From a virus: DNA of 64,000 nt. Shown here one piece after another: positions 1-62,200 of the stretch (positions are counted from its first letter, which is position 1; each line of letters opens with the position of its first letter). Position numbers and translations under genes: made by a program. Below the pieces are notes generated by a model. That model made no database searches. It saw only the letters and a list, made by a program, of their open reading frames with translations, and was not told the origin of the DNA. The stretch lies in IMG/VR virus record IMGVR_UViG_3300048507_000465, positions 1 through 64,000 of that record; one strand, 5' to 3'.

Positions 1-1182
1 GGTATTAAAGGCCAACCAGGTGCAAGTCCTGCTAAAGGTGGTGATGGTGATGGAGGTCCTGCTGGTTCTGATGGTGACAAAGGTGCAAAAGGTTTGCCAG
101 GCTCAAATGGTACGCCAGGTAGTAATGGTAGTGATGGTAGTGATGGTAGTTCAGGCCCTCAAGGTTTACCAGGTAAAGATGGTAAAGATGGTACAGATGG
201 TAGTCCGGGTGGTCCAGGCCCTAAAGGAGAACCTGGAGGTAATGGAACACCAGGAAGTAATGGTAATGATGGTAGGGATGGTGGCCCAGGCCCTAAAGGC
301 CAACCAGGTGAAAGCGGAACACCAGGTATTGATGGTAGGGATGGTAGGGATGGTAGTTCAGGCCCTCTAGGTTTACCAGGTGAAAGTGGTAGAGATGGTA
401 CAAATGGTAGTCCGGGTAGCCCAGGCCCTAAAGGCCAACCAGGTGAAAGCGGAACACCGGGTGCTGATGCTGCCCCTGGTTCAAATGGTGGCCCAGGCCC
501 TAAAGGCCAACCAGGTGAAAGCGGAACACCAGGTATTGATGGCGGTAACGGTAAAGATGGTAGCGCAGGCCCTCAAGGTTTACCAGGTGAAGATGGTAGT
601 GACGGTTCTAATGGTACTCCAGGTAGCGCAGGCCCTCCAGGTAATCCAGGTGAAGATGGTTCAAATGGTACTCCAGGTAGTAATGGTTCAAATGGTACTC
701 CAGGCTCGAAAGGTCAACCTGGTGAAAATGGTTCAAATGGTACACCAGGTAGTAATGGTAGTGATGGTAAAGATGGTAGCGCAGGCCCTCAAGGTAATCC
801 AGGTGAAGATGGTTCAAATGGTTTAAACGGTGGCTCAGGACCTCAAGGTGATCCAGGTGAAACTGGTCCCACAGGACCTCAAGGTTGGACCGGTCCTAAG
901 GGGCAAAAAGGTGATGCAGGAGACATAGGACCTCCAGGATCTGGTGGCGGTGAGCCGAAAGAACAACACCGAATGACTAATTTTGATAGAGGTACTGCAT
1001 ATGGTACATATGAATGTGATGGTGTTTCGTATAGCTGGGCTTTAGGTTCAGGTCAAACTATTGATTTATGTGCTGATCCAGGTAGTGTAAAGTGTAATTA
1101 TGGTGGATGTAGAGGATTAAGAGTCCAGGTAATTAGCCTTTGTGAAACATGTGGACTGGGTGGAGACTTTGGAGAAAGGTAA
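1..1182 (+). CDS. Collagen-like (Gly-X-Y) fibre protein, 5'-truncated by the window edge; Cys-rich C-terminal domain
   Basis: Frame 1 is open from base 1 (GIKGQPGASPAKGGDG...). About 94 near-uninterrupted Gly-X-Y triplets from 91 to ~935, then a non-collagen tail with 6 Cys. The track start at 94 is only the first alternative start codon. Confidence 0.95.
   Translation, partial: GIKGQPGASPAKGGDGDGGPAGSDGDKGAKGLPGSNGTPGSNGSDGSDGSSGPQGLPGKDGKDGTDGSPGGPGPKGEPGGNGTPGSNGNDGRDGGPGPKGQPGESGTPGIDGRDGRDGSSGPLGLPGESGRDGTNGSPGSPGPKGQPGESGTPGADAAPGSNGGPGPKGQPGESGTPGIDGGNGKDGSAGPQGLPGEDGSDGSNGTPGSAGPPGNPGEDGSNGTPGSNGSNGTPGSKGQPGENGSNGTPGSNGSDGKDGSAGPQGNPGEDGSNGLNGGSGPQGDPGETGPTGPQGWTGPKGQKGDAGDIGPPGSGGGEPKEQHRMTNFDRGTAYGTYECDGVSYSWALGSGQTIDLCADPGSVKCNYGGCRGLRVQVISLCETCGLGGDFGER
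280..540 (+). repeat. Internal DNA duplications in the collagen gene
   Basis: ggtggcccaggccctaaaggccaaccaggtgaaagcggaacaccaggtattgat is identical at 280-333 and 487-540, with a partial copy at ~421-460. Confidence 0.85.
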
Positions 1183-1197
1183 ATAAAGTAAAGAATT

Positions 1198-1920
1198 ATG
1201 AATAATGTTGTATCAGATATAAGACTAATGTCTATAGAGTCTCTTGAACAGTCTATAGAAAAAATAAGACAATTACAGTCATACTATTTTCGTACAAATG
1301 AAACTGCTAGATCCTTTGGATGGGATAGTGAATCATTTTGGGAAAATGGTATTGAACCTAAGCATATTGGGTTAATGGCACAGGATCTTCAGGCTATAGA
1401 ACCACTTCTTGTAAATGAAATTGAATTTGCACCCGGATATTATAGAATAGAGTATAATCAGTTAAATGTTCTTTTAATCGAAGCTATAAAAAATTTAAAT
1501 ACTAGAGCAGAATCTATTAAACAAACTTTAGGTATGTCGGCGGCTGATACATTTTCTACAACTACTAAATCTGCAACATGGAGCTACAATCCAATTCAAT
1601 ATGAATTAGACACCTTAGGTGCTAAAGGAGCTAACTTTACTATAAATATTACAGAAACTAATCACAACAAGTTTTGGTGTAATTATACTATAAGTGGAAA
1701 TATATCTATTTCGGATTTTAATAACGAATCTGATTTTTTCCAGTTAGATAATGAAATGCATGGGAATGTTAATATAAAAAATGGAACTGGAAGTATACAT
1801 TTTGACTTTAAAAATTCAGCATGGAATGTTGGTAAAAATCTTACTATAACTCTATGGGAAAAAGATAGTGAAGGTATTTCTACAAGTTCACAGTCTATTA
1901 CTATACAATTACAGGATTAA
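1198..1920 (+). CDS. Stand-alone Peptidase_S74-like (fibre trimerisation chaperone) domain plus C-terminal Calx-beta/Ig-like domain
   Basis: SDIRL...IEKIRQLQSYYF...HIGLMAQDLQAIEPLLV...YRIEYNQLNVLLIEAIKNL is the S74 signature. The C-terminus (YTISG..SDF..GNVNIKNGTGSIHF..LTITL) resembles the Calx-beta-like repeat in the 56203 ORF. Confidence 0.8.
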   Translation: MNNVVSDIRLMSIESLEQSIEKIRQLQSYYFRTNETARSFGWDSESFWENGIEPKHIGLMAQDLQAIEPLLVNEIEFAPGYYRIEYNQLNVLLIEAIKNLNTRAESIKQTLGMSAADTFSTTTKSATWSYNPIQYELDTLGAKGANFTINITETNHNKFWCNYTISGNISISDFNNESDFFQLDNEMHGNVNIKNGTGSIHFDFKNSAWNVGKNLTITLWEKDSEGISTSSQSITIQLQD

Positions 1921-1923
1921 TAT

Positions 1924-1950
1924 AAACATTTTTCAATTTACTCATATAAT
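1924..1950 (+). promoter_or_regulatory. AAAC-N17-TATAA promoter-like motif (putative middle class)
   Basis: aaac-atttttcaatttactca-tataat; the same geometry recurs at 7 other sites. Confidence 0.7.
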
Positions 1951-1973
1951 ATGTAAATAATATATTATATCAT

Positions 1974-2597
1974 ATGAATAATCCTATACCTAAAAATGTT
2001 CTACAATATACTAAAGAAGTAGATCTTCAAAATTATTACTGGTTCCGAAATGCTTTTTCTAAAGAAGATGTAGATAAAGTATTAGACTTGTGCTCTCAAC
2101 TAGAAGAAACAAGAGCTGGTGTAATAGGAACTGAAAATGAAGATTTAGTAAGAACTTCTATAATAAAATGGATTCCTAAAACTGAAAATTTTCAGTGGAT
2201 ATATGAAAAATTAATGGCCCTTTCTGTTACGGCTAATAATGAAATGTGGAATTTTGATTTAGTATCTTCTTTAGAAAGTATACAATACACAGAATACTAT
2301 GCTTCAGAAAACGGACATTATGGTTGGCACCAAGATATAGGTACTGGTGAATTACCATCTAAAAGAAAGGTATCAATTACTATTCAGCTTTCGGAAGATG
2401 ATGAATATGAAGGTGGTGATCTACAAATATGTACTGGCGGTTTAGGAGATGGTAATTTAGATAGAACTAAAACATGTCCAAGAGGAAAGGGTGTCGGTGT
2501 TTTATTTCCAAGTTATATGATGCATAGAGTTACTCCTGTAACTAAAGGTGTTAGAAAAAGTCTAGTACTTTGGGTAGGCGGAAGCTCATATAGATAA
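1974..2597 (+). CDS. 2OG-Fe(II) oxygenase, PKHD/prolyl-4-hydroxylase-like
   Basis: HxD (GWHQD), RKVSITIQLS, YEGGDL, distal His (HRVTPV) and 2OG-binding Arg (RKSLVLW). Confidence 0.9.
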   Translation: MNNPIPKNVLQYTKEVDLQNYYWFRNAFSKEDVDKVLDLCSQLEETRAGVIGTENEDLVRTSIIKWIPKTENFQWIYEKLMALSVTANNEMWNFDLVSSLESIQYTEYYASENGHYGWHQDIGTGELPSKRKVSITIQLSEDDEYEGGDLQICTGGLGDGNLDRTKTCPRGKGVGVLFPSYMMHRVTPVTKGVRKSLVLWVGGSSYR

Positions 2598-2604
2598 TTT
2601 TAAT

Positions 2605-3678
2605 ATGAAAATACTTTTTTGGGTAGGTTACTATAAAAATAACTGGGGGCCAGATTCAACTAACTTAGCAGGTTCAGAAATTGCTACAATAAATATTGTA
2701 GAAAATTTAAAACTTTTTGGCCATGAGATTGTAGTGTCTGGTGATGTTATAGATTCTCATAAAAATGGTGTAACATGGTGTAACCTAGATAAAATACATA
2801 AAAATCATTTTGATTCTTTTGATATTATAGTAGGTCTTAATTATGCAAACGTTGTAAAGGAATTTGAAAAGTATAATTGCAAAAAGATTTTATGGGCTCA
2901 TAACACAGAAATTTACAAATGGTGGAGAGGTAAAGAATTAGAAGATTATGATAGCATATTAGACTATCGTACTAAACAAATAGATAAGATTATATGTTTA
3001 ACTAGCTGGCATGTTAATGCTATTCACAAATGGCACAGTTGGCATAGTGACTCTACTGAAATAATTGCAAATGGGATTAATAAAAAAGATTTTATAGGTA
3101 GGCCTAATAAAAAGATAAATAGTTTTATATGGTCCTCCGCGGTAGATAGGGGTCTAGAAGATTTACTTAAAAATTGGCATAAAATAAAATCAGTTTTACC
3201 AAATGCAACTTTAAAAGTATTCTTTCCTGAATATAGTTATCAAGTATCTCCGGAACTGACTAATAAAATAGTAAACTCTAAAGAAGAATTAATCAATATA
3301 GGTATAGAAATTATAGGTCCTGTAGATCAAAAAACATTACATGACGCAATGTTAAGATCAGAATATTGGTGTTATCTAACTGACTATGAAGAAACATATT
3401 GTATTACTGCTTTAGAAATGCAATATGCTGGAGTATTACCCATAGTTACTAAAGTTGCTGCATTAAAAGAAACAGTAATAAGCGGTATCATGTTAGAAAA
3501 TACGGAAACAAAATGGGACGATTTAGTAAAAACATTATCTAAGCTTTCGCCTTCTCTTAAAAAGTTTTCTCAAAATAAAGCTATAGAATGGGCAAGTAGA
3601 CAAACATGGTATTCTAGATCTATAGAGTGGGATAGCCTACTTAAACATTTAGTAAAAGAAGATAAAAATAAAATATGA
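2605..3678 (+). CDS. GT4-like (GT-B) glycosyltransferase
   Basis: AGSE N-terminal motif, LWAHN, IIANGI, WSSAVDRGL, EETYCITALEMQYAG (E-x7-E). Confidence 0.85.
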   Translation: MKILFWVGYYKNNWGPDSTNLAGSEIATINIVENLKLFGHEIVVSGDVIDSHKNGVTWCNLDKIHKNHFDSFDIIVGLNYANVVKEFEKYNCKKILWAHNTEIYKWWRGKELEDYDSILDYRTKQIDKIICLTSWHVNAIHKWHSWHSDSTEIIANGINKKDFIGRPNKKINSFIWSSAVDRGLEDLLKNWHKIKSVLPNATLKVFFPEYSYQVSPELTNKIVNSKEELINIGIEIIGPVDQKTLHDAMLRSEYWCYLTDYEETYCITALEMQYAGVLPIVTKVAALKETVISGIMLENTETKWDDLVKTLSKLSPSLKKFSQNKAIEWASRQTWYSRSIEWDSLLKHLVKEDKNKI

Positions 3679-4991
3679 AAATAGATAAAATTTATGTAAT
3701 ATCTTTAGATGCTGGAGTTGTTTCAGCACAAGATAGAATAGTTAATAAGTTAAGAGATTTTAAATTTAAAAATCAAACGCCTTATGAAATTATGCAGGCA
3801 TATGATGCTAGGACCGGTGATTTTCCGGATGGAGTTTCAACATATCAAAGCTGGAATTTAGGTAAAGATAATTGGAATGAATGGTGGCAAAGAGATGTAT
3901 TACCAGGTGAAGTTGGATGTGGTATTAGTCACTCTATGATTTGGAAGAAAATGATAGAAGAGGGAGTAGAACGTGCATTAATATTAGAAGATGATTTTAA
4001 AACTAAAAATAGTATTGATGATTTACCAGAACCTCAAAATCCATTTGATCTGATATGGTTAGGCAGGGGCGTAATAAATAAAGATGAATCTAGTATGGGA
4101 GATTGTTGGGTTAAGCCTAAAAATTCATATAGAACACATTCATACTTATTAACATTAGAGGGTGCTAAAAAATTAGCAAATACAAACTACTTTAATAATA
4201 TAATTCCAGTAGATGAGTTTTTATCAGCATGTACATATTCGCATAGAAGACCTGATATTGTTAAATTATTTCCACCTATATTAAATGCATTAGCACATAA
4301 AGACGAACATTTTACATGGCAAGATAGATCAAAAGCTGAATCTACAATAGAATCAATACAAAAACCTGATTATGGTAATTTTGAAGTATTAGACGATTCG
4401 GATTGGGAAGCTTGGAAGGAGAAGTATTTAAATTTAACTACATTAAAGGGTGAATGGGATTTAATGGTTGATGATTTAGGACATAATATATATGAGTTTC
4501 CACTATTTACAGAAAGATTTTGTAGAGAAATAGTGGCTATGGCAGAAGCTAAAGATAAGTGGACTATTGATAGACATGCTAATTATCCTACAAATGATGT
4601 ATTGTTAAATGAGATAGGACTTAATAATATCTATGATAGAGTTTTACATGAAGTGGTTAGACCTCTTTGTATTCATTTATGGAAATTAGAAGGACCTTCA
4701 TGGGATGCTTTTTCTAATGAAAACTTTATGGCAAGATATACTATGTCTAGACAATCACATCTAGCGCTACACCATGATAGAAGCCACTTAACGTTAGTTG
4801 TAAAACTTAATGATGAATTTGATGGTGGAGGAACTTGGTTCCCTAAATATAATCTATTATCAAATCCAGAACGTATTGGTACTGCAACAATCCATCCTGG
4901 AATGATTACACACCAACATGGCGCAAGGCCAATATATGCAGGTAGAAGATATATTGCAGTATCTTTTATTAGAACACATGATGAACCTTAA
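3675..4991 (+). CDS. Fusion: GT25 (COLGALT-like galactosyltransferase) + PLOD-type lysyl hydroxylase domain
   Basis: N-half: IYVISL, GEVGCGISH, LILEDD, DLIWLGR, SYLLTLEGAKKL, IIPVDEFL. C-half: IYEFPLFTERFC, YPTNDVLLNEIG, FMARY..RQSHLALHHDRS, GGGTWFPKYN, IHPGMITHQH, RRYIAVSFI. The C-half matches the PLOD C-terminus as recalled (FPIFTE..C, FVVRY, LMPHHDAS, HPGRLTHYH, RYIAVSFV). Confidence 0.88.
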   Translation: MKIDKIYVISLDAGVVSAQDRIVNKLRDFKFKNQTPYEIMQAYDARTGDFPDGVSTYQSWNLGKDNWNEWWQRDVLPGEVGCGISHSMIWKKMIEEGVERALILEDDFKTKNSIDDLPEPQNPFDLIWLGRGVINKDESSMGDCWVKPKNSYRTHSYLLTLEGAKKLANTNYFNNIIPVDEFLSACTYSHRRPDIVKLFPPILNALAHKDEHFTWQDRSKAESTIESIQKPDYGNFEVLDDSDWEAWKEKYLNLTTLKGEWDLMVDDLGHNIYEFPLFTERFCREIVAMAEAKDKWTIDRHANYPTNDVLLNEIGLNNIYDRVLHEVVRPLCIHLWKLEGPSWDAFSNENFMARYTMSRQSHLALHHDRSHLTLVVKLNDEFDGGGTWFPKYNLLSNPERIGTATIHPGMITHQHGARPIYAGRRYIAVSFIRTHDEP

Positions 4992-5006
4992 ATAATAAAT
5001 AATAAA

Positions 5007-5864
5007 ATGATAAACACTAGCATATTTTTTGCAGATCCACAATCTGATCCAGAAAGAATGGCGATTTCTCCTAGTAAAAATTGGGGAGATGTGATTTCTT
5101 ACATGTTGATTAAATATTTTTCTAAAAGTAATAAAATTGCGCCGGAAGATGTTTTTTGGTTTGATCCGAATGGTGTGCAGTTACTTAAAAATGGAAAAAT
5201 TCTAGCAGTTGGAAGTGCTATGAAATTTACTAAACCAAATGATTTAGTTTGGGGAACTGGAGTTATTTCTCCTGGAACAATAGGCGACATTCCTAAAAAA
5301 GTATATGCTGTACGGGGGCCTTTAAGTAAAAATGAAATGATTAAAAAAGGAATTAAAGTTCCTGAAATATATGGAGATCCCGCACTTCTTTTTCCAAAAA
5401 TATACAATCCATCAAATGTAATTAGAAAGAAACATAAACTTGGTATTATACCTCATTATATAGATTATGTAGATTCTAATGTAATAGATAGGCTAAAAGA
5501 ACTTGAACAACAAGGCATTAAAATTATTAATATAACAGCAGGTGTATTTCATTTTATAGATGAAATATTATCATGTGAAAAAATAGTATCTTCAACATTA
5601 CACGGTCTAATTGCTGCAGATGCTTATGGAATACCAAATGCTAGAATTAAACTTTCTAATAGAATACAAGGCGGTAATTTTAAATATGATGATTACTATG
5701 CATCAATACATAGACCTAGTTTGTTAAACAATATAAATATATTTGAACCAATAAATTTAAATACTTTAATGAATTTACAGTTTAATTGTGAATTTAATCT
5801 AGATTTAGATTTATTATTGAATAACTCTCCATGGATGGATCCAGATAATAAAGACTATTTTTAA
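5007..5864 (+). CDS. Polysaccharide pyruvyl transferase (ExoV-like)
   Basis: NWGD, AVGS, VWGTG, AVRGPLS, YGDPALL, GIIPHY, SSTLHGLIAADAYGIP. Confidence 0.88.
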   Translation: MINTSIFFADPQSDPERMAISPSKNWGDVISYMLIKYFSKSNKIAPEDVFWFDPNGVQLLKNGKILAVGSAMKFTKPNDLVWGTGVISPGTIGDIPKKVYAVRGPLSKNEMIKKGIKVPEIYGDPALLFPKIYNPSNVIRKKHKLGIIPHYIDYVDSNVIDRLKELEQQGIKIINITAGVFHFIDEILSCEKIVSSTLHGLIAADAYGIPNARIKLSNRIQGGNFKYDDYYASIHRPSLLNNINIFEPINLNTLMNLQFNCEFNLDLDLLLNNSPWMDPDNKDYF

Positions 5865-5886
5865 TAATACATGAAACACAAATAAT

Positions 5887-6315
5887 ATGAAAAAAGAATT
5901 AAATTTAAAATCAATAACAGGAGATGATGGACATCTTGTTTCTCCAGTTTTAAATAAAGGATGTAAAAATTACTTAATTGATATTGATGGTACAGTTACA
6001 GATGATGTACCAAACGAAGAACCAGAGAGAATGTCAGTAGTCTTACCGTATCAGGGATCTGTAGAGACTCTTAATAAATGGTATGACGAAGGACATGTAA
6101 TTACTTTCTTTACTTCAAGAACTGAAGAGGTAAGAGATATTACAGAGACTTGGTTAAATAAGCATGGATTCAAATACCATGGTCTACTAATGGGTAAACC
6201 TAGAGGTGGTAACTATCACTGGGTTGATAACCATATTGTCAAAGGTACAAGATATGAAGGTAAATGGGCTGATTTGGTTAGAGAAGAAAGAACTATAGAA
6301 GTATTTCCTTCTTAA
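5887..6315 (+). CDS. HAD-superfamily phosphatase, Flavobacteria-like
   Basis: YLIDIDGT (DxDGT), FFTSR, GKPRGG, WVDN. Confidence 0.8.
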   Translation: MKKELNLKSITGDDGHLVSPVLNKGCKNYLIDIDGTVTDDVPNEEPERMSVVLPYQGSVETLNKWYDEGHVITFFTSRTEEVRDITETWLNKHGFKYHGLLMGKPRGGNYHWVDNHIVKGTRYEGKWADLVREERTIEVFPS

Positions 6316-6324
6316 AGTATCATA

Positions 6325-6334
6325 GATATATAAT
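6325..6334 (+). promoter_or_regulatory. GATATATAAT late-promoter-like motif, 12 nt before ATG
   Basis: gatatataat-ct-ATG(6337). Confidence 0.7.
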
Positions 6335-6336
6335 CT

Positions 6337-7263
6337 ATGATTATTAAAAATCTTAAATCATTTATTGCTGAACGTGAAGGAGGCTTGCATAAAGTTATTA
6401 TGTGTGTATCTACTGAACTTACAGATTTTAAATACGTTACTGATGATAGCTGTTTTGCAAATCGGTATATGGAATTATTTACTAAAGGTAGTAAACCTAA
6501 AGTAGCTAATTTGCCAGTAATTAACTTTTGTAACATTCATACTAAAACGTTATTAGATGCTGGAACTCCAAAGGAATTAATCTATAATCCCGAAGAGAAA
6601 AAGATGGAAATCGCATCTAAAGTAAAGTGGCACAAAACTCACGCAAATTCAAAGCACGTTCCTAATACAGTTTCTGATGAAAAAGATTTAAATCAGTTAA
6701 AGTTCCCTATCATAGCGAAACCTGATAACAGATATTCAGGCCAGGGTATTATTAAAATAGATACTATTAAAGAAGCTAATGATATGGATCTTTCTGACTT
6801 TGAAGTTTTTAGTGAGAAGATAGACATCGCTGAAGAACATAGAATAATGATGTGGAGGGGTGAGCCTGTTATGTGGGTACAAAGAGTACACGGTAACGAG
6901 GAGACCAAAAAGATGACAAAGAAGAAAGAAGATAAGTTATATTTTAAATATGTCTTAAAGGATTTAAAGAATATGCCAGAAGATTGGCAGGTTGTATTTA
7001 ATGAAATGGCAGACGTTCATAAAGAACTAGACATATATTCAATAGACCTAATGGTTGACACTAAAGGAAAACCTTGGGTAGTAGAGATGTCTTCTGAATT
7101 TGCGCCTCTTTATGGTGTAATGGCACAACTTTACAAAAAAGTCTATCATGATTATTATGGTAAAAAATTAAATCCGAGCGAAGAAGCACAGATAGATATG
7201 TACCAAAAGAAAGATATTGAAAGCACAATTAACTTTGATAAAAAAAGATTTAGTATAGAGTAA
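6337..7263 (+). CDS. ATP-grasp (RimK-like) protein with capsid-targeting-like N-terminus
   Basis: FPIIAKPDNRYSGQGI, EEHRIMM, SIDLMVDTKGKPWVVEMSS; N-terminus MIIKNLKSFIAE. Confidence 0.75.
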   Translation: MIIKNLKSFIAEREGGLHKVIMCVSTELTDFKYVTDDSCFANRYMELFTKGSKPKVANLPVINFCNIHTKTLLDAGTPKELIYNPEEKKMEIASKVKWHKTHANSKHVPNTVSDEKDLNQLKFPIIAKPDNRYSGQGIIKIDTIKEANDMDLSDFEVFSEKIDIAEEHRIMMWRGEPVMWVQRVHGNEETKKMTKKKEDKLYFKYVLKDLKNMPEDWQVVFNEMADVHKELDIYSIDLMVDTKGKPWVVEMSSEFAPLYGVMAQLYKKVYHDYYGKKLNPSEEAQIDMYQKKDIESTINFDKKRFSIE

Positions 7264-7265
7264 TT

Positions 7266-7505
7266 ATGGCTAAAACAGATTATAGATGTATGCAAATATG
7301 TATTTGGTTACACCATATGCATGTAGATCCTATGTTTGATTTTTTAAACGGTAGGATTAAAGAAGCACCTGACTATTATCTTAGCCATGATGTTGTACCA
7401 AGTTCTATTACAGGTGGTTATGTTCAAATCGCACTTTCTTTTGAAGCTTATTCTTTACTAACCTCTACTAAGGACTGGGAAGCTTCTAACGGTTGGATGA
7501 CTTAA
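7266..7505 (+). CDS. Hypothetical protein
   Basis: 79-aa ORF packed directly after the ATP-grasp gene. Confidence 0.65.
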   Translation: MAKTDYRCMQICIWLHHMHVDPMFDFLNGRIKEAPDYYLSHDVVPSSITGGYVQIALSFEAYSLLTSTKDWEASNGWMT

Positions 7506-7515
7506 ACGACAAATT

Positions 7516-7620
7516 ATGAAAAAAAATGAAAGAAAGGATTACCTATTAAACCACAAAGGCAAGAAGTATAAAGCCGATAGTTTTATAGGATTAATCTGGA
7601 AGTTTTTAAGAAACAAATAA
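7516..7620 (+). CDS. Small hypothetical protein (34 aa, not in track)
   Basis: MKKNERKDYLLNHKGKKYKADSFIGLIWKFLRNK*; fills the gap before the terminator. Confidence 0.5.
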   Translation: MKKNERKDYLLNHKGKKYKADSFIGLIWKFLRNK

Positions 7621-7637
7621 GACTTCGAACGTATAAA
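7611..7637 (+). promoter_or_regulatory. AAAC-N17-TATAA motif
   Basis: aaac-aaataagacttcgaacg-tataaa upstream of the exonuclease. Confidence 0.7.
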
Positions 7638-7638
7638 G

Positions 7639-7666
7639 AACACTTAGTTAACGCTAAGTGTTTTTT
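7639..7666 (+). terminator. Intrinsic terminator
   Basis: aacacttag-ttaacg-ctaagtgtt followed by a T-run. Confidence 0.75.
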
Positions 7667-7694
7667 AGTATAAAAGGATTAAAGATTTAAAAAG

Positions 7695-8426
7695 ATGTAC
7701 ACAATAGACGAATTAAAACAAATGATATTCATTGACATTGAGACCGCAACTCAGAAAGAGACGTTTCAAGAGATTATCGATGAGAACCCAGAATTAGAAC
7801 AGTATTGGAACCTAAAGACTATGCAGTTGGTTCAGAAGAACCCAGTTGAATTGGCAGAGTTTGAAGATCCACATAAGATGTTTCCAAGAATGGCTGGTTT
7901 AAATCCAGAATGGGGTAGAATTGTTTGTATCTCTATTGGTCAATTACAATTTGATGAAACAGGCTTTCCTAATGGTTTTAAGGCTGTCTCATTCAATGGC
8001 ACTGATGAAGGTAAGATACTAAAGGATTTTCACGATATGTCCTCTAAGATCATGCAAAAGTACCCAGGAATGAAATGGGTAGGTCACTTTATCAAAGGTT
8101 TTGATATGCCTTATATAATTAAAAGATCGTTGATTAATAATGTAAAAGTACCAAGGCACTTCCATCTACATAAAATGAAGCCTTGGGAAAACTGCCTCTT
8201 AGATACAAAAGAGGTTTGGCAATTCGGAGGTTGGGACTCTGCTAAACTAGGACTCATCTCAGAAGTCCTAGGCATCCCCTCTCCAAAAGATGCAATGTCA
8301 GGTTCAGAAGTTTCTGAATATTACTGGAATGACAGACACGATGAGATAAAAACTTATTGTGAGAAAGATATTAAGGCTACCGCAAATGTCATATTAAAAA
8401 TGTCCGGTATGCCAATATGTCACTAA
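7695..8426 (+). CDS. DnaQ/PolB-like 3'-5' exonuclease (Bacteroidota type)
   Basis: FIDIET (ExoI), GHFIKGFDMPY (ExoII), YCEKDI (ExoIII). Confidence 0.88.
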   Translation: MYTIDELKQMIFIDIETATQKETFQEIIDENPELEQYWNLKTMQLVQKNPVELAEFEDPHKMFPRMAGLNPEWGRIVCISIGQLQFDETGFPNGFKAVSFNGTDEGKILKDFHDMSSKIMQKYPGMKWVGHFIKGFDMPYIIKRSLINNVKVPRHFHLHKMKPWENCLLDTKEVWQFGGWDSAKLGLISEVLGIPSPKDAMSGSEVSEYYWNDRHDEIKTYCEKDIKATANVILKMSGMPICH

Positions 8427-8492
8427 AATCTACTTCAATTTAATAAAACAGTGACAAGTCGTCACAAAAACAGCTTTGGCATACTTTTTTCA
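8410..8492 (+). promoter_or_regulatory. Putative sigma54-like heat-shock promoter with upstream TG(A/C)CA-N3-YGTCA boxes
   Basis: TGCCAATATGTCA (8410-8422), TGACAAGTCGTCA (8452-8464) and TTGGCATACTTTTTTCA (8476-8492) upstream of hsp20. Confidence 0.45.
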
Positions 8493-8539
8493 CTATTAGT
8501 ATTGTGCATAAGCACATAAACTAAATAAAAATTTAAAAC

Positions 8540-8914
8540 ATGTATTTAACAAATTTATCAAAACTAAACAACGGATCGTTTCACGACGCATTCGATTCAT
8601 TTTTTAACTTCCCAACATTAAGAAAAGATTGGGACACATTAGGAATTACTGGACCAGACTATAAAGTGGGTGAAGACTCTTTAATGGTTAGTCTACCAGG
8701 TTTTAGCAAGAAGGATATTAATATTGAAGTTGAAGGTCAGATCTTAACTATCTCTGCTGAAGAAAAAGAAGATAGCTTTGCAAAGGCTTTTACTAAGCAG
8801 TTTAGATTTCCAAACGAAACTGATATGGACACGCTTGCAGCTACAATGAAAGATGGTATCTTAACTCTTAACTTTAAGAACTCAAACAACAAGAAGACAA
8901 TCTCTATCAAATAA
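8540..8914 (+). CDS. hsp20: Small heat shock protein Hsp20
   Basis: LPGFSKKDINIEVEGQILTIS...FTKQFRFP...ATMKDGILTL alpha-crystallin domain. Confidence 0.92.
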   Translation: MYLTNLSKLNNGSFHDAFDSFFNFPTLRKDWDTLGITGPDYKVGEDSLMVSLPGFSKKDINIEVEGQILTISAEEKEDSFAKAFTKQFRFPNETDMDTLAATMKDGILTLNFKNSNNKKTISIK

Positions 8915-8928
8915 GGTAGAGATTTCTT

Positions 8929-8994
8929 CAAAATAGTTGCCATAGAATTTTTTTATGTCAATTATTTTTCGTATATTAGTACTGTAACTAAAAA
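8929..8994 (+). promoter_or_regulatory. ~65-bp repeated early-promoter element, copy 1
   Basis: caaaatagttgccatagaatttttttatgtcaattatttttcgtatattagtactgtaactaaaa immediately before ORF 9001. Confidence 0.85.
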
Positions 8995-9000
8995 TTAAAC

Positions 9001-56202: not shown

Positions 56203-59200
56203 ATGGCACAATTAATATTAAAAGGTACTTTACAGACTAGTGCAGCTGATGCATTTGCTAACGGCCCTAGTAATGTAACCCAACAAACTCTATATTGGGA
56301 TGATAGCAATAACGCAACATTTGGCGCAGGTACTGATTTATTTACGGATGCCGGCATGGATCCCCTTACAGATACATTTACGCCAGGAAGCAATGGTTGG
56401 TGGTATACTATAGATGGAAATAGAGCAATTCAAATTGATGGTACCGCAAACTTAGGTCGAGTTTTAGATATTGAAAACGGCCCTATAATTACTTTAAATG
56501 GGGATTCTACTGAATATTATACAGTCGGGTCAACATGGACCGACGCAGGTGCTACTGCTACTGATGTAGAAGATGGTAATGTAACTGGTATCACTATGGC
56601 AGGCGCGACCAGCGGCGATACTTTAAATTCTACGGGAAATACTTCAATTACATATGATGTATCAGATTCAGATAATTATCCAGCTTTAACAGTAACTAGA
56701 CTACTAACCGTATATTCTTACGATACATTTTCAGCATCAGCATCAACAGTTGACGAGGGTGGTACTATTATATTTACATTAAATGGTACTAATATTCCAG
56801 GTGGTACTACAATACCATACGCTGTAACTGGTATTAGTTCTGCGGATTTATCATCAGGTTCAACTGATGGAATGTCTGGTAGTATTACGGTAGATTTTGG
56901 TACTGGTAGTTTAACTTTTACATTAAATGAAGATTTAACAACAGAGTCAGCAGAGACTTTGACCGTTACATTAGATCCACAAACACTGGGAGATTCTAAT
57001 GGAGCAGATGTAGGTTCTCTTTCTGATTCAGTTACCGTTAATGATACTAGTATTGGAAACGACCCTCCTACTATAATTGTAGATCCATTGTTAGTTAGTG
57101 TTACTAATGATATTAATGATGGAAACTTAGAGTGGGTATCTATTAATTTAGGTAATAATATAAGTGGTAATACCGACAACGACCCATTAACTTATACAAT
57201 ATTAGACCCGGGAAATTTTAACGGAAGTTTAGCAGAATCACAGGGAGGTAGTGTCATTTCACAATGGCCACATGCTATTGCTAATAATGGTAGTACTATA
57301 TGGTATACTCCAGGTAATGTATTTAATCAAGGCTCTGAAAGTTTTGATTACAAGGTAGATGATGGAACTAATGATGCTACGGGAACTGTAACCGTAACAG
57401 TTTCTCCACCAGTAAATACAGCTCCGACTGCGGAAAATTATACAGGAATCTCCCTTGATGGAGAAATATCAAATACCGCAACTAGATCTTATGAGTTTCA
57501 AAGAAAGCACTCAGTTACACCTTCTGCTCAAATAGGAGAAACATATAGCTTTCAATGGGTAGATGATTCAAATGGTACTAATGTATTAACAATTGGCCAG
57601 TTAAATAACTCATTAAGCCACGGTACAGTTGCTATTACAGCAGGTGATGGTACCGGAGAGTGGTTTACGTATACACTTAATAATAATGTAGATTTAAATC
57701 CTAGTAGCTCTCAACTTACAGAGACTTTTTATTATCAAATAACTGAAACTAATACTACGGAGTCTTATTCTGCTAGGGGTCAAATAGATCTAAGCATACA
57801 ACCTCCTGGAAATACACCACCCCAATTTACCACACCTGGTAGTTCTCCACATTCAGTGAGTGTTGATCAGTTTAGTTTTGTAAATATTAATATAGCTGTA
57901 ACAGATGGAGATGGAGATAATATTACATTTAATGCTACACAACCACCAAGTGGGCAGGGTGCTGTAGATATTTCTAATTTAGGTATAAACGGTACTATAA
58001 AATATACACCTGGGTCATATCAGGGTAATACTACATTTACCCTTACGGCAAACGATCCATACGGTGGAAGTGCTTCTATGCTGTTTAATGTTACAGTAAA
58101 TGCTAGTCCATATGTTGCAGTAAGAATTAGCCCATGGGGAAGTTCATCTTCAATTGCTTGTAACGATTCTCGAGGCTCTCAAAATTATTATTTAAACACA
58201 GCACAAGCTGTAACGTTAAATGAATTAACAATAGGAGATTCTATTTACGTAAGTACAGCCCTTAGTGATACGTGGGCGCCTATTGACGCTGCATTTGGTT
58301 GGGTTTCAGTTGCAGAAGCAACCGACTTAGGAAATGTTATATCATATAAGATTGATACTAATGGTATTATTGAGGAAGTGGTTGCATGTCAAGTTACTGG
58401 AGGTCAAGCGTGGCCAATAGAAATAGGTTCTTCGTCATCGGTAAATGCATATTGTAATTTGCAGTCGTTTCAAACAGGTATAGTTTATCAAAATATTAGT
58501 GAATTTAAACCAAATGGTGTTACGCCTTTTACGCTAGGTGATGTTGTTGAGGCTGGCGGTCAGTTATTTAATTCAGAATATTATGCTAATGCGTATGCAG
58601 GTCAGACGGCTCCGGCAAATATTGCACTAGGAGATGGCCTTTACAACTTTGTTAGCTCGTATGGTAAATATTATTCTTATCAAAATGGAGTTTGGCAAAT
58701 AAACACAGATACTAGTTCGCCTTATTACAATACGACTACATTTGGTTGTCCACCTGAAGTTACATGGGAGGTTAAAAGTTTAACTGTAAAATGGTTACCA
58801 GAACAACCTACAGAAATAGGGTATATTTGTAATGCTACTTCAGCTGAGCTTGAGGATATTACAATTTACTATAAAGTTCCACAGGGAATAACATATACTT
58901 TAAAGGATTTAGCTATAAATCAAAAGAGAATTTTTACTAGCGAATCAGCCGCTTTATCAAACGATTATAGTCAACTATTTCAATCAGCGGTTTTACTATA
59001 TTTTGGTAAGTATTTTATTTGGAATAATGATGATGAAACAGGTTATACGGGAGCTGTACAATGGTATGGTTTTAATTCAATTACTAATGAGATTGAACTT
59101 GCTAACATTGGAAGTTCGGGAGGTGTTTGTTTATCTCCAGGTAACCAAGATTACATTAGAGAAGAACATACTGGGCTTTCTTATGAAATAGGTAGTTCAA

Positions 59201-62200
59201 CTGGAACTAGACCTAATGCGTATTATGCTTTTTATGGATGTGAAGTGCAATTAGATGCTGGTATTCCAGGAGGAGATTCATACTGGCCTTTATATGTAAT
59301 AGACGGATTTCATACTGCTGATTTAAATTCTACGTCATTTGTTAAAGATTTTATTAGTACAGTAGGCGATACTGTTACACATATTAAGTCTAGTGAATGT
59401 ATGACTTTAAAGCATAAAGTATGGGGGCTTAATATACAAGACGCAATTAATCAGCTAGAAGATAATATATCAGTATATAGACAGGATAGGATTAGGGCAA
59501 TTGCAATAAACCCACAAGATATAGGTATAGGGAGTCAGTCTATTATTTCATATGGATATAGTGATTGTGGAGGATGTCTTACAAATCCAGAAACTGTAAA
59601 TACATATCAATTTCCTATAGTAGAAGATTTTGAAATATTAAATAGGACAATACCTAATTTTAATTTAGAGACTAATTATGAATTAGATAACGTATCTAAA
59701 CCGTTATTAAGAACAAATCCAAAATTATCAACTAATGCTAAATTAGTAGCCAACCTCAACGATCAAGTTTTTATTGAAAGTATTGACGCTACTAAGGAGT
59801 TGGCTTCAGTTTCATATAAAAGGTGGGAAGTTAATAAAGATGGACAGTATTCATATGACTTAAAAAAGTTTTATGAATTTAGTTATACAACATCTGACAT
59901 TATGTATGCTACTAAAGTAGAATACTCAGATTATGCAGTACAAGAGACCTTTGATAAACAAATTGAAGAACTATATCAATACGGTACTAAATATAATTAC
60001 TCTAAACTACACGATGAAGACTATAGAATTTTCGCACCAATTTGGTTAGATAAAGCTATACCTAGAAAATTTGTAATATTTAGAGTTAGTGATCCTACAT
60101 CTTCTGTTGATTTTGATAATAGGAGTATGTTTAATAATATGCAGGATTTATTAAAAAATTCTGAAATAATAAAAACATTTGATTTAACTAAAGATTCTAC
60201 ATTGGGTTCTTATATAAGGAATCATATGGAGGATGAGGGCTTCCCAAAGACTCCAATTACTTTTAACTTTGACGAAAATGAAAAAAGTACGTTTAACGGT
60301 ATTGATTTAAAAAAGGGTGGTTTTACTAAGAAGGGTGAGTTTTTACATGATGATTTTGTAAAAGCAGATGCGCCTCTTATTTCAAGTAATCAACTAATAA
60401 CTGATGGGTTTGAAAGAAATAATATAGCATGTGCTAATTTATTAAACTTAGAGTTTTTATTCAATGATGATTTAGTATCGGATTATGGTATTAATAGATA
60501 TTTTGGAGTGTACGTTAATGATATAGATTCTGGATATGGGTCTATTTCTACTTCTGAAAACGGTAATATAGTTTTTGATATATTAAATAGTAATATTAAT
60601 AATGATAGCTGGTCTGCTATTCCATCATTTAAACATATATCTCAGACTCCAACTATTGGGTATGTTTCGATAAGTGATGAATACTATAAAATTTCTTCTA
60701 GAAGTAATTATATTCCTAAAAATTTAAACGTTGTAGTTGAAGATTCAGGTAACAAGATACCTAATGAAATTAAAATAGCTCCAAACGGTAATTCTATTGA
60801 TATTACTAGAAACAAAGAAGCTGGGTTTGATTTTATTAAAATGGAACTTATATCAACTCCTAATACTAACGATAAGTTTACTATATTTTCTTCTAAAGAA
60901 TCTTCGTATGCTATTAAATTTGTTAGACTTGCGGAGGGTGAAAACTGGAGTATTTATTTTAATGAGTATGGTGTACAAAAGGTAGTTCCATTCCAGACTG
61001 GTTCTAGTTTATTAACTACATTTATTAACATTAAAAATGAATTTTTAAATTTAGGATTTTCTAATATTAAAATAGATTGGGACTTAGATAAAAGTACATT
61101 ATATGTAACAGAGTTACAGTCTACCCTCGGGGATTTAGAGCTTTATATTAAATCAACAGATCAATCTTATACTAGCTTAGCAAATGCAGTTGCAATACAA
61201 ACCTCTTTTAACTTAGATAACTCAACATATATTGCTTCAGATCAAATTAGTGCTGGTAATTTTAGTAGTACTACATATTCTAGTAATGGTACATTAGGCC
61301 AGATAACTAAAGCATTAGTATCTTGTATTACAAATTCTGCGCAAACTGATTTTAACGTATTACATGAAACAGGGTCAAATATATTTTATATTAAATCTAA
61401 AGTAAAGGGCTACAAGCTTTTACAAAGTGGAGTTTTAGTTCCTAAAGAAAACTCTATAGATTTTTTAAATATAGAAAATTTAGATACTAATTCTTTATTA
61501 AATCTTCACGATGAGAGCCTAAATTCAATAGCAGTAACTAATAATATTTATTACATGAGCGGTGGTAACTCTGCTAATAAGTCAGTTTATGTTTCTTTAG
61601 ATTCTGTTGCGGATGTAAATATAGGTGATTATATAGAGACTAAAAAATTAAACGTATATAATAAAATTATAGATATTGTAGACGACGTCGATAGAATTCC
61701 AACAACATTTAAAAGATTAATACTAGAACGTGAAAACGATTTAGATTCTGGAGAAATTAAAATATATGCGGATAATCTTGCTAGAATAGGTTTATTTTCA
61801 GCGTTTGATATACATGATATGAATTTTGATTTTTATGATACTTCAAACTCAGATCTTAAAGAGTTAAAATATGAAAATTCTGCTACTATTAATTATATAC
61901 CAGAGGAGAGTACTTCAGGAACTGAAGATGAAGTTGCAGTATTTAGTAATGATTATGATTTAACACCTAGTAATTATTTTACAGGTATTAGTGATGTATT
62001 ACCGGAGGAGCTTGCAGATCAATATAATGAAATAAAACTTTATACTGAGTATGATAGATTAAATGAAAATAATCTTAAAGAGTTTGCTTTAAATTCTAGA
62101 GTAGTTCCTAATATTAATAAATGGGTATTAAAAGATACTTTAACTGTAAGAGAACAACCATATTATTTAAATGCCAATGAAGCATTTGGTAGAACTAATT

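Follow-up and report, generated by a model that had tools for sequence, protein, structure and literature searches.

Six genes at the start of a phage genome fragment, in which a collagen-like virion fibre and an S74 chaperone are followed by a set of putative modifying enzymes, are likely to form, as judged from their sequences, a fibre-modification module that would act inside the infected cell. What the sequences show is homology, fused genes, synteny, conservation of the catalytic residues and covariation of the module with Lys-bearing collagens; we infer the substrate, the sequence of steps, which sugars are used and any role of the standalone oxygenase and of the pyruvyl transferase on the fibre. 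In the proposed mechanism, the C-terminal 2OG/Fe(II) lysyl hydroxylase (LH) of a fused enzyme would convert the Y-position Lys of Gly-X-Lys to hydroxylysine, after which its N-terminal GT25 domain, a homolog of the COLGALT1 catalytic domain, would move a hexose from a host UDP-sugar to the hydroxylysine hydroxyl. A GT4 glycosyltransferase would then add a further sugar, possibly being the first sugar transferase in lineages without GT25, while a standalone oxygenase (2OG_a) may hydroxylate fibre prolines and a polysaccharide pyruvyl transferase (PyrT) may cap a phage-made glycan. Our literature search found no paper on such a cluster or on collagen-lysine chemistry in phages, in agreement with the first-pass annotation of this DNA, which knew of no such cluster in a bacteriophage.

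Gene Layout and the Fibre Proteins

The window, the whole 64,000-nucleotide stretch analyzed here, begins with the first base of a fragment of 82 kb from IMG/VR (record IMGVR_UViG_3300048507_000465). Checking of the ORFs in positions 1-5864 returned all six genes, contiguous and on the + strand, with the same coordinates as in the first-pass annotation and with intergenic spacings of -4 to 53 nt. Because CheckV estimates a completeness of ~30% for the 82-kb fragment, the contigs of relatives extend up to 245-297 kb and the nearest cultured relatives are jumbo phages of Bacteroidota, the label of jumbo phage fits; the virus is probably a marine jumbo myovirus with a Flavobacteriia host. RNA-library contigs from three studies contain mismatch-free matches to parts of all module genes, for which carried-over DNA is a possible source.

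The gene for the collagen-like fibre protein (1..1182, + strand; PF01391, E=5.6e-43) is 5'-open because the window begins at the very end of the contig, and it thus encodes the C-terminal 393 aa of the protein. These contain 101 Gly-X-Y triplets in two unbroken runs, followed by a Cys-rich C-terminal domain of 75 aa. Position Y is occupied by Pro (29), Asp (22), Asn (16) and Lys (9), position X by Ser (26), Pro (15) and Lys (4); the stretch G-P-K-G-Q-P-G-E-S-G-T-P is recurrent. We regard this collagen as the probable substrate of the module enzymes, even if the small number of Lys residues at Y in the fragment (9%) counts against our main reading.

The second gene (1198..1920, + strand) encodes a standalone S74-type chaperone scoring 29.6 bits with PF13884 (Peptidase_S74; cut-off 22 bits), the chaperone part of which spans residues 6-111 and is followed by a C-terminal domain of ~130 aa with unassigned fold. 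Its PHROG matches are the C-termini of tail fibres. The two ORFs share one frame and are parted by two TAA stops; they are thus separate genes rather than a readthrough fusion. The protein carries the motif S-D-I-R-L-M, versus S-D-R-R-L-K in the fused S74 domains of cyanophage fibres. The earlier placement of this chaperone in a maturation pathway holds for the folding of the fibre, not for a modification step.

A promoter-like site, TAAACA-N16-TATAAT (1923..1950, + strand; 10/12 match), sits before the enzyme genes, in the 53-nt gap that is the only sizeable one of the cluster, and is the best + strand match in positions 1-9000; the scan for this motif gave no overall enrichment versus shuffled sequences, and the site is a lead only.

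The Predicted Glycosyltransferase-Lysyl Hydroxylase Fusion

The core enzyme of the module, with predicted activity, is a fusion protein of 438 aa (3675..4991, + strand) combining a COLGALT-like GT25 domain (residues 1-~218; PF01755, E=9.6e-18), a linker (219-233) and a PLOD/L230-like LH domain (~245-438). Phmmer searches against PDB retrieved the LH of mimivirus L230 (8e-28), human LH3 (7e-23) and COLGALT1 (3e-12), with the next class of oxygenases (P4H) at only 1e-3 and bacterial GT25 at 4e-3. The AF2 model of the fusion (pLDDT 85.6) superimposes on L230 LH with a TM of 0.83 and rmsd of 2.8 A at 33% identity, and matches human LH3 with E=2e-20; for the other half, COLGALT1 (E=2e-14) again precedes bacterial GT25 (beta-1,4-GalT, 5e-8). 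Sequence, profile and predicted structure therefore all uphold the kinship to COLGALT1 and PLOD/L230 proposed in the first-pass annotation. Across 49 homologs there is no variation in the Fe ligands H366, D368 and H415, in R425, the Arg that binds 2OG, or in E105 and D107 of the EDD motif (E105-D107). Among cellular genomes the fusion is essentially absent, being found on only three MAG contigs, one of which is the same phage.

GT25 proteins, and glycosyltransferases (GTs) that marine myophages encode in their tail-fibre regions, are usually read as enzymes of LPS or capsule. According to such an explanation, the GTs and the fused oxygenase would alter the host surface against superinfection, and their adjacency to fibres would reflect a shared hypervariable region of host interaction. 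The source annotation of the phage homologs is indeed 'GR25 family glycosyltransferase involved in LPS biosynthesis', the GTs of pelagimyophage tail-fibre regions have been interpreted as O-chain modifiers (PMC7029224), relatives have an island of sugar-nucleotide and GT genes beside HAD and one gene architecture, described below, has no adjacent collagen. However, mimivirus L230 and R655 were also mis-annotated as 'LPS biosynthesis' enzymes before the activity of L230 on collagen was shown (PMC9546862), and by sequence and model the GT25 half is nearer to COLGALT1 than to bacterial LPS-type GT25. Modification of the host surface would moreover leave unexplained both the fused peptidyl-lysine hydroxylase, with its match to L230, and the way in which Lys in the collagens tracks LH; we consider it quite improbable.

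Association with Collagen Genes and Their Lysine Content

A co-oriented collagen ORF lies just upstream in 47/57 LH-anchored viral loci versus 1/57 LH-less control loci, a difference whose significance (Fisher) is overstated because the loci share phylogeny and are not independent counts. The link with collagen is present in 7/8 distinct gene architectures, including those of the cultured cyanophages S-CAM9 and S-PRM1, and the co-occurrence of collagen and fusion, by which the first-pass annotation had proposed to judge its reading, thus extends to many phage lineages. In one lineage the module is placed between a series of six collagen genes and the tail sheath, while in cultured cyanomyoviruses it follows a tail fibre of 1,830 aa that has 59 triplets, 22-23 of which are G-x-K, and a C-terminal S74 domain. 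In the clade of the window, some loci only seem to be exceptions, their collagen lying 10-17 kb upstream. For the architecture of GT25::LH with downstream GT4 (L135, L139, L141, L146 and others), there is no collagen at a distance of up to 10 kb; of five such contigs, only one has collagen elsewhere, these contigs being 22-44% complete.

Fusions take the forms GT25::LH, GT4::LH, GT4::GT25::LH and GT25::PLOD-GT::LH, the cyanophage version carrying the PLOD GT domain (PF25342, E=7.5e-47). Among the LH loci examined, none had LH without a neighbouring or fused GT.

The 71 unique collagens adjacent to LH have Lys in 18.2% of Y positions (2,460/13,529 triplets) and in 0.7% of X positions, whereas LH-less relatives (G004, which is 88% complete, G008, G012, G014, G015, L056 and L029) have 3 Lys in about 1,340 triplets. 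In G005 (99% complete), LH and GT25 are split genes and the collagens have ~40% Lys at Y. Collagen helices in general also favour Lys at position Y.

Three contigs (G001, G002 and G003) possess the fusion, yet the only collagens recovered from them are Ser/Thr-rich with 0-3% Lys. This counts against our main reading and would suit an explanation in which the enzymes act on a non-collagen protein of virion or host, or in which LH hydroxylates Lys with no ensuing glycosylation, serving stability or cross-linking, while the GTs work elsewhere. The nearest structural kin of 2OG_a act on EF-Tu or HIF rather than collagen, and the known glycosylation of phage virions reportedly concerns proteins of capsid and tail tube (Freeman 2023, cited in PMC12619734). 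On the other side, the recurrent fusion of LH with GTs favours coupled hydroxylation and glycosylation, collagen is adjacent in most loci and Lys occurs specifically at the position that LH enzymes use, so that we find this explanation improbable and retain collagen fibres as the likely substrate.

GT4, the Standalone Oxygenase and the Pyruvyl Transferase

The GT4-family (GT-B) gene (2605..3678, + strand; PF00534 Glycos_transf_1, E=5.4e-7) overlaps the fusion gene by 4 nt, and homologs of its product are fused to GT25::LH or LH in relatives (L112:1126-3456, L140:8954-11320, L183:2799-4493, L189:4325-6136 and L123). These fusions tie GT4 to the module, where the first-pass annotation had put it, and the protein is probably a second or alternative sugar transferase.

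The 2OG_a gene (1974..2597, + strand; PF13640 2OG-FeII_Oxy_3, E=1.6e-13) encodes a protein with conserved H119-x-D121, H184 and R194, whose AF2 model (pLDDT 92) has PPHD, PHD2, PiuC and algal P4H as best Foldseek matches (TM 0.65-0.69). Profile comparison with PDB gives PKHD (4e-16) before B. anthracis P4H (6e-7), and the family is generic in phages (6,313 clusters), its nearest enzymes being of PHD and PKHD/PiuC type. By sequence and fold the protein is a candidate fibre prolyl hydroxylase; of the earlier proposal of a P4H converting Y-Pro to Hyp, the prolyl-hydroxylase fold survives while the P4H identity becomes doubtful. Indeed, a conserved role as Y-Pro 4-hydroxylase misfits the 2OG_a-bearing relatives, because their collagens have ~1% Pro at Y.

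The PyrT gene (5007..5864, + strand; PF04230 PS_pyruv_trans, E=2.9e-12) reaches 47.5 bits (cut-off 25.3) with partial coverage of the profile. PyrT is found after the fusion only in the window phage, being absent between fusion and HAD in nine close loci (L008-L016); in relatives its homologs form the C-terminal part of GT2::GT4::PyrT and GT2::GT2::PyrT proteins, and LH-less phages have PyrT too. We treat PyrT as an accessory gene of the module and consider the suggested pyruvylation of the collagen glycan doubtful.

These data bear on a broader version of the pathway, in which all six genes would serve one collagen: P4H forming Hyp, LH forming Hyl, GT25 adding Gal, GT4 a second sugar and PyrT a pyruvyl group. 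The tight packing of genes in the same orientation would agree with it, as would the 29% Pro at Y in the window collagen, unlike the collagens of relatives, the co-occurrence of 2OG_a with Pro-containing collagens in most lineages and the presence of PyrT domains always fused to or beside phage GTs. A known case of glycoprotein pyruvylation is that of Pvg1p in S. pombe, which acts on beta-Gal. Nevertheless, the distribution of PyrT, the generic family of 2OG_a, nearer to PKHD/PHD than to collagen P4H, and the scarcity of Y-Pro in its other carriers render the complete pathway doubtful, and we prefer a module centred on the fusion.

Relationships with Known Systems

The closest parallel is Acanthamoeba polyphaga mimivirus, in which L230 is a bifunctional collagen lysyl hydroxylase and hydroxylysine glucosyltransferase of proven activity (PMC9546862), while the activity of the phage fusion is predicted. 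In both cases one virus encodes collagen-like fibres together with enzymes, putative ones in the phage, for Lys hydroxylation and glycosylation, and hydroxylase and transferase reside in one polypeptide with homologous LH domains and the same Fe/2OG ligands. Other mimivirus enzymes are L593 (P4H), R655 (GT25-like) and R699 (Gal-Hyl glucosyltransferase). The differences are that a tailed phage of a bacterium replaces a giant virus of amoebae, that the GT fused to LH is of GT25 (COLGALT) type in the phage but of PLOD type in L230, and that the phage has an extra GT4.

The human complex of LH3 (PLOD3) and COLGALT1 (GLT25D1) contains the same two modules for the conversion of Lys to Hyl and O-hexose (PDB 8zgc, 6fxr, 9evj), and the PLOD GT domain is shared between LH3 and the cyanophage version. 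The human association is non-covalent and located in the ER, whereas the phage modules are covalently joined and would work in the cytoplasm. Moreover, of COLGALT1 only the catalytic C-terminal domain (chain residues ~372-503), not the N-terminal one, has a counterpart in the phage GT25 half; the window fusion also lacks the GT and accessory domains of LH3, and the transfer of a second sugar would fall to a non-homologous GT4.

Among phages, Freeman et al. reportedly found in 2023 that GTs which mycobacteriophages encode beside structural genes glycosylate proteins of the virion itself, the acceptors being C-termini of capsid and tail-tube subunits. The location of the GTs and the type of proposed target are alike here; the mycobacteriophage system, as far as we are aware, differs in having no hydroxylase step, no collagen and unrelated GT families. 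In prokaryotes, Iyer, Abhiman, de Souza and Aravind (2010; PMC2938197) predicted that 2OG dioxygenases act as hydroxylases of collagen-like or phage-tail-collar-like proteins encoded together with them, the new hydroxyl then being modified further, and read the dioxygenase arrays of cyanophages as secondary-metabolite enzymes; unlike in the present phage, no PLOD or COLGALT homologs were described in those systems. Stability, a glycan shield or polysaccharide mimicry, the advantages proposed in the first-pass annotation, are hypothetical benefits of the modification. Since its collagen-like fibre gene is followed by kin of the collagen-lysine enzymes of animals and mimivirus, the phage probably sugar-coats its own fibres.

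Gene Content of the Cluster

The window covers the initial 64 kb of a linear 82-kb viral fragment of IMG/VR, ~30% complete (CheckV), and opens with six genes on the same strand (+), all of which were found with the positions and domains that the first-pass annotation had assigned to them. They encode a protein of collagen triple-helix repeats (ORF1, 1-1182, open at its 5' side where the contig end cuts the gene), a Peptidase_S74 chaperone (ORF2, 1198-1920, PF13884), an oxygenase of the 2OG-FeII_Oxy_3 family (1974-2597, PF13640; hereafter 2OG_a), a glycosyltransferase with a Glycos_transf_1 domain match (GT4, 2605-3678), a fusion of Glyco_transf_25 (GT25, PF01755) with an oxygenase domain (3675-4991) and a pyruvyl transferase of the PS_pyruv_trans family (PyrT, 5007-5864, PF04230). 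The remaining genes of the window encode baseplate, sheath-like, PhoH, helicase and hsp20 proteins, and the nearest cultured relatives are Bacteroidota jumbo phages, namely Tenacibaculum phages PTm1, PTm5 and pT24 together with Flavobacterium and Chryseobacterium phages. At the DNA level, close phage relatives amount to only three short matches, to huge uncultured phages; the stretch reappears almost whole in metagenomes (seawater, marine and viral) of many studies. An open frame of >2,599 aa at 56203-63999 continues past the window end, and a 277-aa ORF just beyond it has a weak collagen-repeat match under the cut-off (G000:64601-64708, 25.5 bits).

Although ORF1 and ORF2 lie in the same frame, they are separate genes because two TAA codons stand between them. 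Stop-codon readthrough or recoding linking the collagen to S74 is thus ruled out, and translation with table 11 leaves the remainder of the window open. The S74 domain is present in ORF2 (29.6 bits) but forms an ORF of its own behind these stop codons; in relatives (locus L020 and cyanophages) it is the fibre's own C-terminus. Autoproteolysis of S74 domains uses a Ser/Lys catalytic dyad. ORF2 has the motif S-D-I-R-L-M, as against S-D-R-R-L-K in the cultured cyanomyovirus S-CAM9, and its Met stands at the position of the dyad Lys. Being a separate gene with Met at this position, ORF2 does not correspond to a fibre-terminal S74 domain released by Ser/Lys autoproteolysis. It has an extra C-terminal domain of ~130 aa and a full-length homolog in L014 (6794-7597). 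Judged from its sequence, ORF2 is an S74-type chaperone turned into a separate gene.

A Predicted Lysyl Hydroxylase Joined to a COLGALT1-Like Glycosyltransferase

The fusion protein has 438 residues, the C-terminal part of which resembles lysyl hydroxylase (LH) domains. Residues 245-432, compared with all PDB sequences, align with mimivirus L230 over its LH domain (E = 8e-28) and with human LH3 (7e-23), and LH is the nearest oxygenase class, the best other one being P4H with only 1e-3. In the AlphaFold2 model (49 homologs, pLDDT 85.6, disordered linker at 219-233), the double-stranded beta-helix superposes on the solved LH domain; Foldseek aligns the model with L230 LH (6ax6_B) over 205 columns, with 33% identity, an rmsd of 2.8 A and a target-normalised TM of 0.83, and with LH3 at E = 2e-20. 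The Fe(II) triad H366-x-D368 and H415 and the 2OG-binding R425 are invariant in the 49 homologs and likewise in the split and triple-fused forms, and align with the residues of L230 and LH3. The C-terminal domain is therefore, from sequence and model together, a homolog of the collagen lysyl hydroxylases of PLOD/L230 type, with putative hydroxylation of X-Lys-Gly.

The GT25 half scores 65.2 bits with PF01755, against a cut-off of 24, and conserves the acidic DxD-type motif for metal and UDP-sugar (E105-D106-D107), in which E105 and D107 are invariant. Its residues 71-190 match human COLGALT1 at 3e-12 and bacterial GT25 at only 4e-3 in PDB sequences, while Foldseek gives 2e-14 for COLGALT1 (rmsd 3.7-4.4 A) versus 5e-8 for bacterial beta-1,4-galactosyltransferases (rmsd about 10 A); mimivirus R655 is also among the Foldseek matches of the fusion model. 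The alignment with COLGALT1 is limited to chain residues ~372-503, the GT25 half having ~218 aa, and comparison of sequence and structure found no counterpart in the fusion of the N-terminal, non-catalytic GT-like domain in the two-domain architecture of COLGALT1. The GT25 half thus represents the catalytic domain of COLGALT1 only. The initial description of the protein as a COLGALT::PLOD fusion is correct at the level of homology, given the PDB and Foldseek matches and the invariant catalytic residues: the LH half is L230/LH3-like and the GT25 half is nearer to COLGALT1 than to bacterial GT25.

Linkage of Lysyl Hydroxylase Genes to Phage Collagens

The association of the fusion with collagen genes in relatives, which had been named beforehand as the point on which the proposal could fail, was borne out. 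A profile-based scan retrieved 161 LH-encoding viral stretches; among the loci kept from these, 57 have 5 kb or more of sequence upstream, and a co-oriented collagen ORF lies just upstream in 47 of these 57 loci and in one of 57 LH-less control loci, with a nominal p of ~1e-20 that overstates independence because the loci are related. Anchoring on the neighbouring HAD phosphatase gene in place of the fusion yielded 80 relatives (~16 with and ~60 without the fusion), in which Gly-X-Y genes stand upstream of most fusion-bearing loci and almost none of the others. The loci L022, L025 and L051 are only apparent exceptions, their co-oriented collagen lying 10-17 kb upstream, just beyond the flank. 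Nine close viral loci share one gene order (2OG oxygenase, GT4, fusion, HAD, ATP-grasp, exo and hsp20), and collagen and S74 genes precede it in every case where the sequence extends that far.

The linkage holds in seven of the eight distinct LH architectures. Besides that of the window (collagen, S74, 2OG, GT4 and GT25::LH), these comprise six collagens followed by GT4::GT25::LH, 2OG and, further on, tail sheath and baseplate (contig G010); collagen, 2OG, GT2 and GT4::GT25::LH; collagen, 2OG and GT4::LH; collagen, 2OG, GT2 and GT4::LH; collagen(S74), DUF6445, GT2, LH and ATP-grasp; and, in the cultured cyanomyoviruses S-CAM9 and S-PRM1, a 1,830-aa tail fibre, two 2OG oxygenases and a 613-aa GT25::PLOD-GT::LH protein (PF25342 for the PLOD-GT domain, 7.5e-47). 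The tail fibre of the latter phages ends in an S74 domain and contains a collagen segment of 59 triplets, of which 30-31 have Pro at X and 22-23 have Lys at Y. In the eighth architecture, GT25::LH followed by GT4, no collagen was found within 10 kb; one of its five contigs has large collagens ~35 kb away and the other four have none, but these are 22-44% complete. In the lineage with standalone LH, a DUF6445 protein (L168:7165-8097) occupies the slot taken elsewhere by 2OG_a. Three architectures have, directly behind the LH-containing gene, a conserved 387-aa ORF without Pfam match (L183:4539-5702, L189:6172-7335 and L140:11368-12531), which may be an additional component of the module.

The composition of the collagens varies along with the presence of LH. 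Two classes exist in these phages, one of G-[P/A]-[K/Q/T] type beside LH and one that is Ser/Thr-rich, of G-[S/T]-S type. Collagens beside LH have Lys in 18.2% of Y positions and 0.7% of X positions (71 unique ORFs, 13,529 triplets), and genome G005 (99% complete), which carries LH and GT25 as separate genes, has three collagens with ~40% Lys at Y. Relatives without detected LH (G004, 88% complete, and G008, G012, G014, G015 and L056) have Ser/Thr-rich collagens only; the collagen of L029, likewise without detected LH, is not Ser/Thr-rich, and this LH-less set together holds 3 Lys in ~1,340 triplets. Two observations go against this pattern: the sole collagens recovered from the fusion-bearing G001-G003 have 0-3% Lys, and the fragment of ORF1 has only 9% Lys at Y (of its 101 Gly-X-Y triplets, 29 have Pro at Y, 9 have Lys at Y and 4 have Lys at X). 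Very large, almost purely G-[S/T]-S collagens are encoded in LH-less L116 (G004:1-10000), L104, L124-L126 and L056; one of them, of 1,402 aa, has Ser at Y in 313 of its 314 triplets. By analogy with BclA of Bacillus, such collagens could be targets of Ser/Thr O-glycosylation by other phage glycosyltransferases.

Taken together, we consider it probable that LH and its associated glycosyltransferase(s) act on the phage's own collagen fibre, as predicted.

Further Enzymes of the Cluster

GT4 is assigned to the predicted module because its gene overlaps that of the fusion by 4 nt and because it is physically fused to GT25::LH or LH in several lineages. Cyanophages have a non-homologous second glycosyltransferase, the PLOD-GT domain, in the place where others have GT4, which suggests that more than one sugar may be added, as in animals. 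Searches of PDB sequences with GT4, PyrT and ORF2 returned nothing significant.

The standalone oxygenase 2OG_a, initially described as P4H-like, has a P4Hc-type 2OG domain in which H119, D121 and R194 do not vary and H184 hardly does, and its model (pLDDT 92) shows a prolyl-hydroxylase fold. The nearest folds retrieved by Foldseek are Pseudomonas PPHD, PHD2, Dictyostelium PHD, algal P4H and PiuC/PKHD (TM 0.65-0.69), and in profile searches PKHD/PiuC scores best (4e-16), followed by the P4Hs of B. anthracis (6e-7) and of algae (1e-4); NCBIfam returns weak PKHD-type matches only. By both profile search and Foldseek, the closest relatives are not collagen-type P4Hs, and PPHD, a top match, acts on EF-Tu. 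The earlier description thus applies only broadly, and the family is generic and nearest to PKHD/PHD types: it numbers 6,313 representative clusters and is a generic marine-phage oxygenase. It accompanies the module in most architectures. Pro at Y amounts to 29% in ORF1 and 0-3% in relatives carrying 2OG_a, which have 14-55% Pro at X. We give even chances to a putative action of 2OG_a on the fibre, where a role on prolines is plausible.

PyrT matches PF04230 with 47.5 bits against a curated cut-off of 25.3, but only over profile positions 126-274 of 280. In none of the nine close loci (L008-L016) does it stand between fusion and HAD; it is present in LH-less L049, L084 and L093, as well as in LH-bearing G005 (L090). 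In relatives, next to sugar-nucleotide enzymes, it is found as the C-terminal domain of larger proteins, GT2::GT4::PyrT or GT2::GT2::PyrT, and such a fusion also occurs on a contig without recovered LH or collagen. PyrT is consequently no conserved member of the collagen module. PyrT would act on some phage-made glycan, with nothing linking it specifically to collagen, and its putative action on a fibre glycan seems doubtful. In L090 (10378-16046) and L084 (10378-15860) a glycan island directly follows HAD, with the giant GT2::GT4::PyrT or GT2::GT2::PyrT fusions first and then a methyltransferase, DegT aminotransferase, hexapeptide acyltransferase, GT-D-like protein, GDP-mannose dehydratase and epimerase.

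The HAD phosphatase and ATP-grasp genes (5887-7263) are excluded from the module, since they are conserved whether or not the fusion is present, being kept in ~60 relatives without it. HAD is weakly similar to capsule-biosynthesis phosphatases and ATP-grasp to TTL/R2K/YheCD proteins, and the pair is kept beside a variable fibre/glycan island in ~80 relatives. An ATP-grasp gene also comes immediately after LH in a different lineage (L168:10611-11564).

Transcription and Occurrence

A promoter-like site lies in the 53-nt gap ahead of the oxygenase gene, a lead for which position alone is suggestive; the scan for promoters and terminators gave no enrichment over shuffles. RNA libraries of three studies contain contigs that align, free of mismatches, with parts of the collagen, S74, fusion and PyrT genes and of the oxygenase/GT4 and PyrT/HAD junctions. 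The contigs are short, so that operon structure and expression level are not readable from them and uncovered regions are uninformative. These contigs fit transcription in the sea, with DNA carry-over being possible.

Cellular genomes are essentially devoid of the fusion family, which occurs there in only three MAG contigs. One of these comes from the phage of the window and sits in the bin of a Flavobacteriaceae MAG, which weakly hints at the host. LH homologs, which may be of phage or of cellular origin, also lie on short contigs binned with MAGs outside the Bacteroidota: L123 (Rhodobacteraceae), with an 878-aa open frame of GT4::LH, and L122 (Thiotrichales), with a standalone 265-aa LH and no collagen within 20 kb. 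The longest contig listed for P0018, a 90%-identity cluster of the fusion family, has 104,430,999 bases and is presumably of eukaryote scale; contamination or insertion is possible.

Relation to Known Collagen-Modifying Systems

To our knowledge, prokaryotic and phage collagens are commonly regarded as unmodified, and hydroxylysine-linked glycosylation is considered animal chemistry, with mimivirus in addition. Our literature search, in which subscription journals were thinly covered, found no publication that describes a lysyl hydroxylase or the glycosylation of collagens in phages. Among proven systems, that of mimivirus comes closest, with L230 (LH and hydroxylysine glucosyltransferase), L593 (P4H), R699 and R655 (PMC9546862, PMC5802723); the glycosyltransferase of L230 uses UDP-Glc (PMC9546862). 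In mechanism the phage protein comes nearest to the LH3/COLGALT1 complex of humans (PDB 8zgc), whose two catalytic modules it joins covalently. Modification by dioxygenases was predicted for bacterial collagen-like and tail-collar proteins by Iyer et al. 2010, but with enzymes of families other than LH/GT25, and the dioxygenase arrays of cyanophages were taken there as secondary-metabolite genes (PMC2938197). Papers on marine myophages and on aquatic Flavobacteriia jumbo phages regard such glycosyltransferases as modifiers of LPS or DNA, or mention virion glycosylation for mycobacteriophages only (PMC7029224, PMC12619734).

The proposed maturation of collagen is hence supported in part: it is probable as regards LH and glycosyltransferase action on the fibre, and not supported as regards the membership of PyrT or the identity of 2OG_a as a collagen-type P4H. 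Sequential action of the whole set, namely prolyl and lysyl hydroxylation, hexosylation of hydroxylysine by GT25, extension by GT4 and capping with 4,6-pyruvate ketal by PyrT, appears improbable; if true, it would give the phage fibre an anionic coat of glycans, which as a modification of collagen is known from no organism. On this reading the family would also show that a "hydroxylate then glycosylate" unit of LH and glycosyltransferase, partnered with collagen, is widespread and diversified in marine phages, and phages would become a candidate reservoir or vehicle in the evolution of the animal and giant-virus enzymes.

If the action of LH and glycosyltransferases is as predicted, which is directly testable in cultured cyanophages, the compact enzymes, possibly expressible in bacteria, could serve to make hydroxylated and glycosylated recombinant collagen, a named unmet need (PMC9546862). 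Many genes of marine viromes labelled as "LPS biosynthesis" or "auxiliary metabolic" would instead be genes of virion maturation. The enzymes would also offer further evidence on how the LH3/COLGALT1 partnership of animals arose. Many marine phages, cultured cyanophages included, would then put hydroxylysine-linked sugars on their host-recognition fibres, with a bearing on fibre stability, receptor binding and protease resistance.
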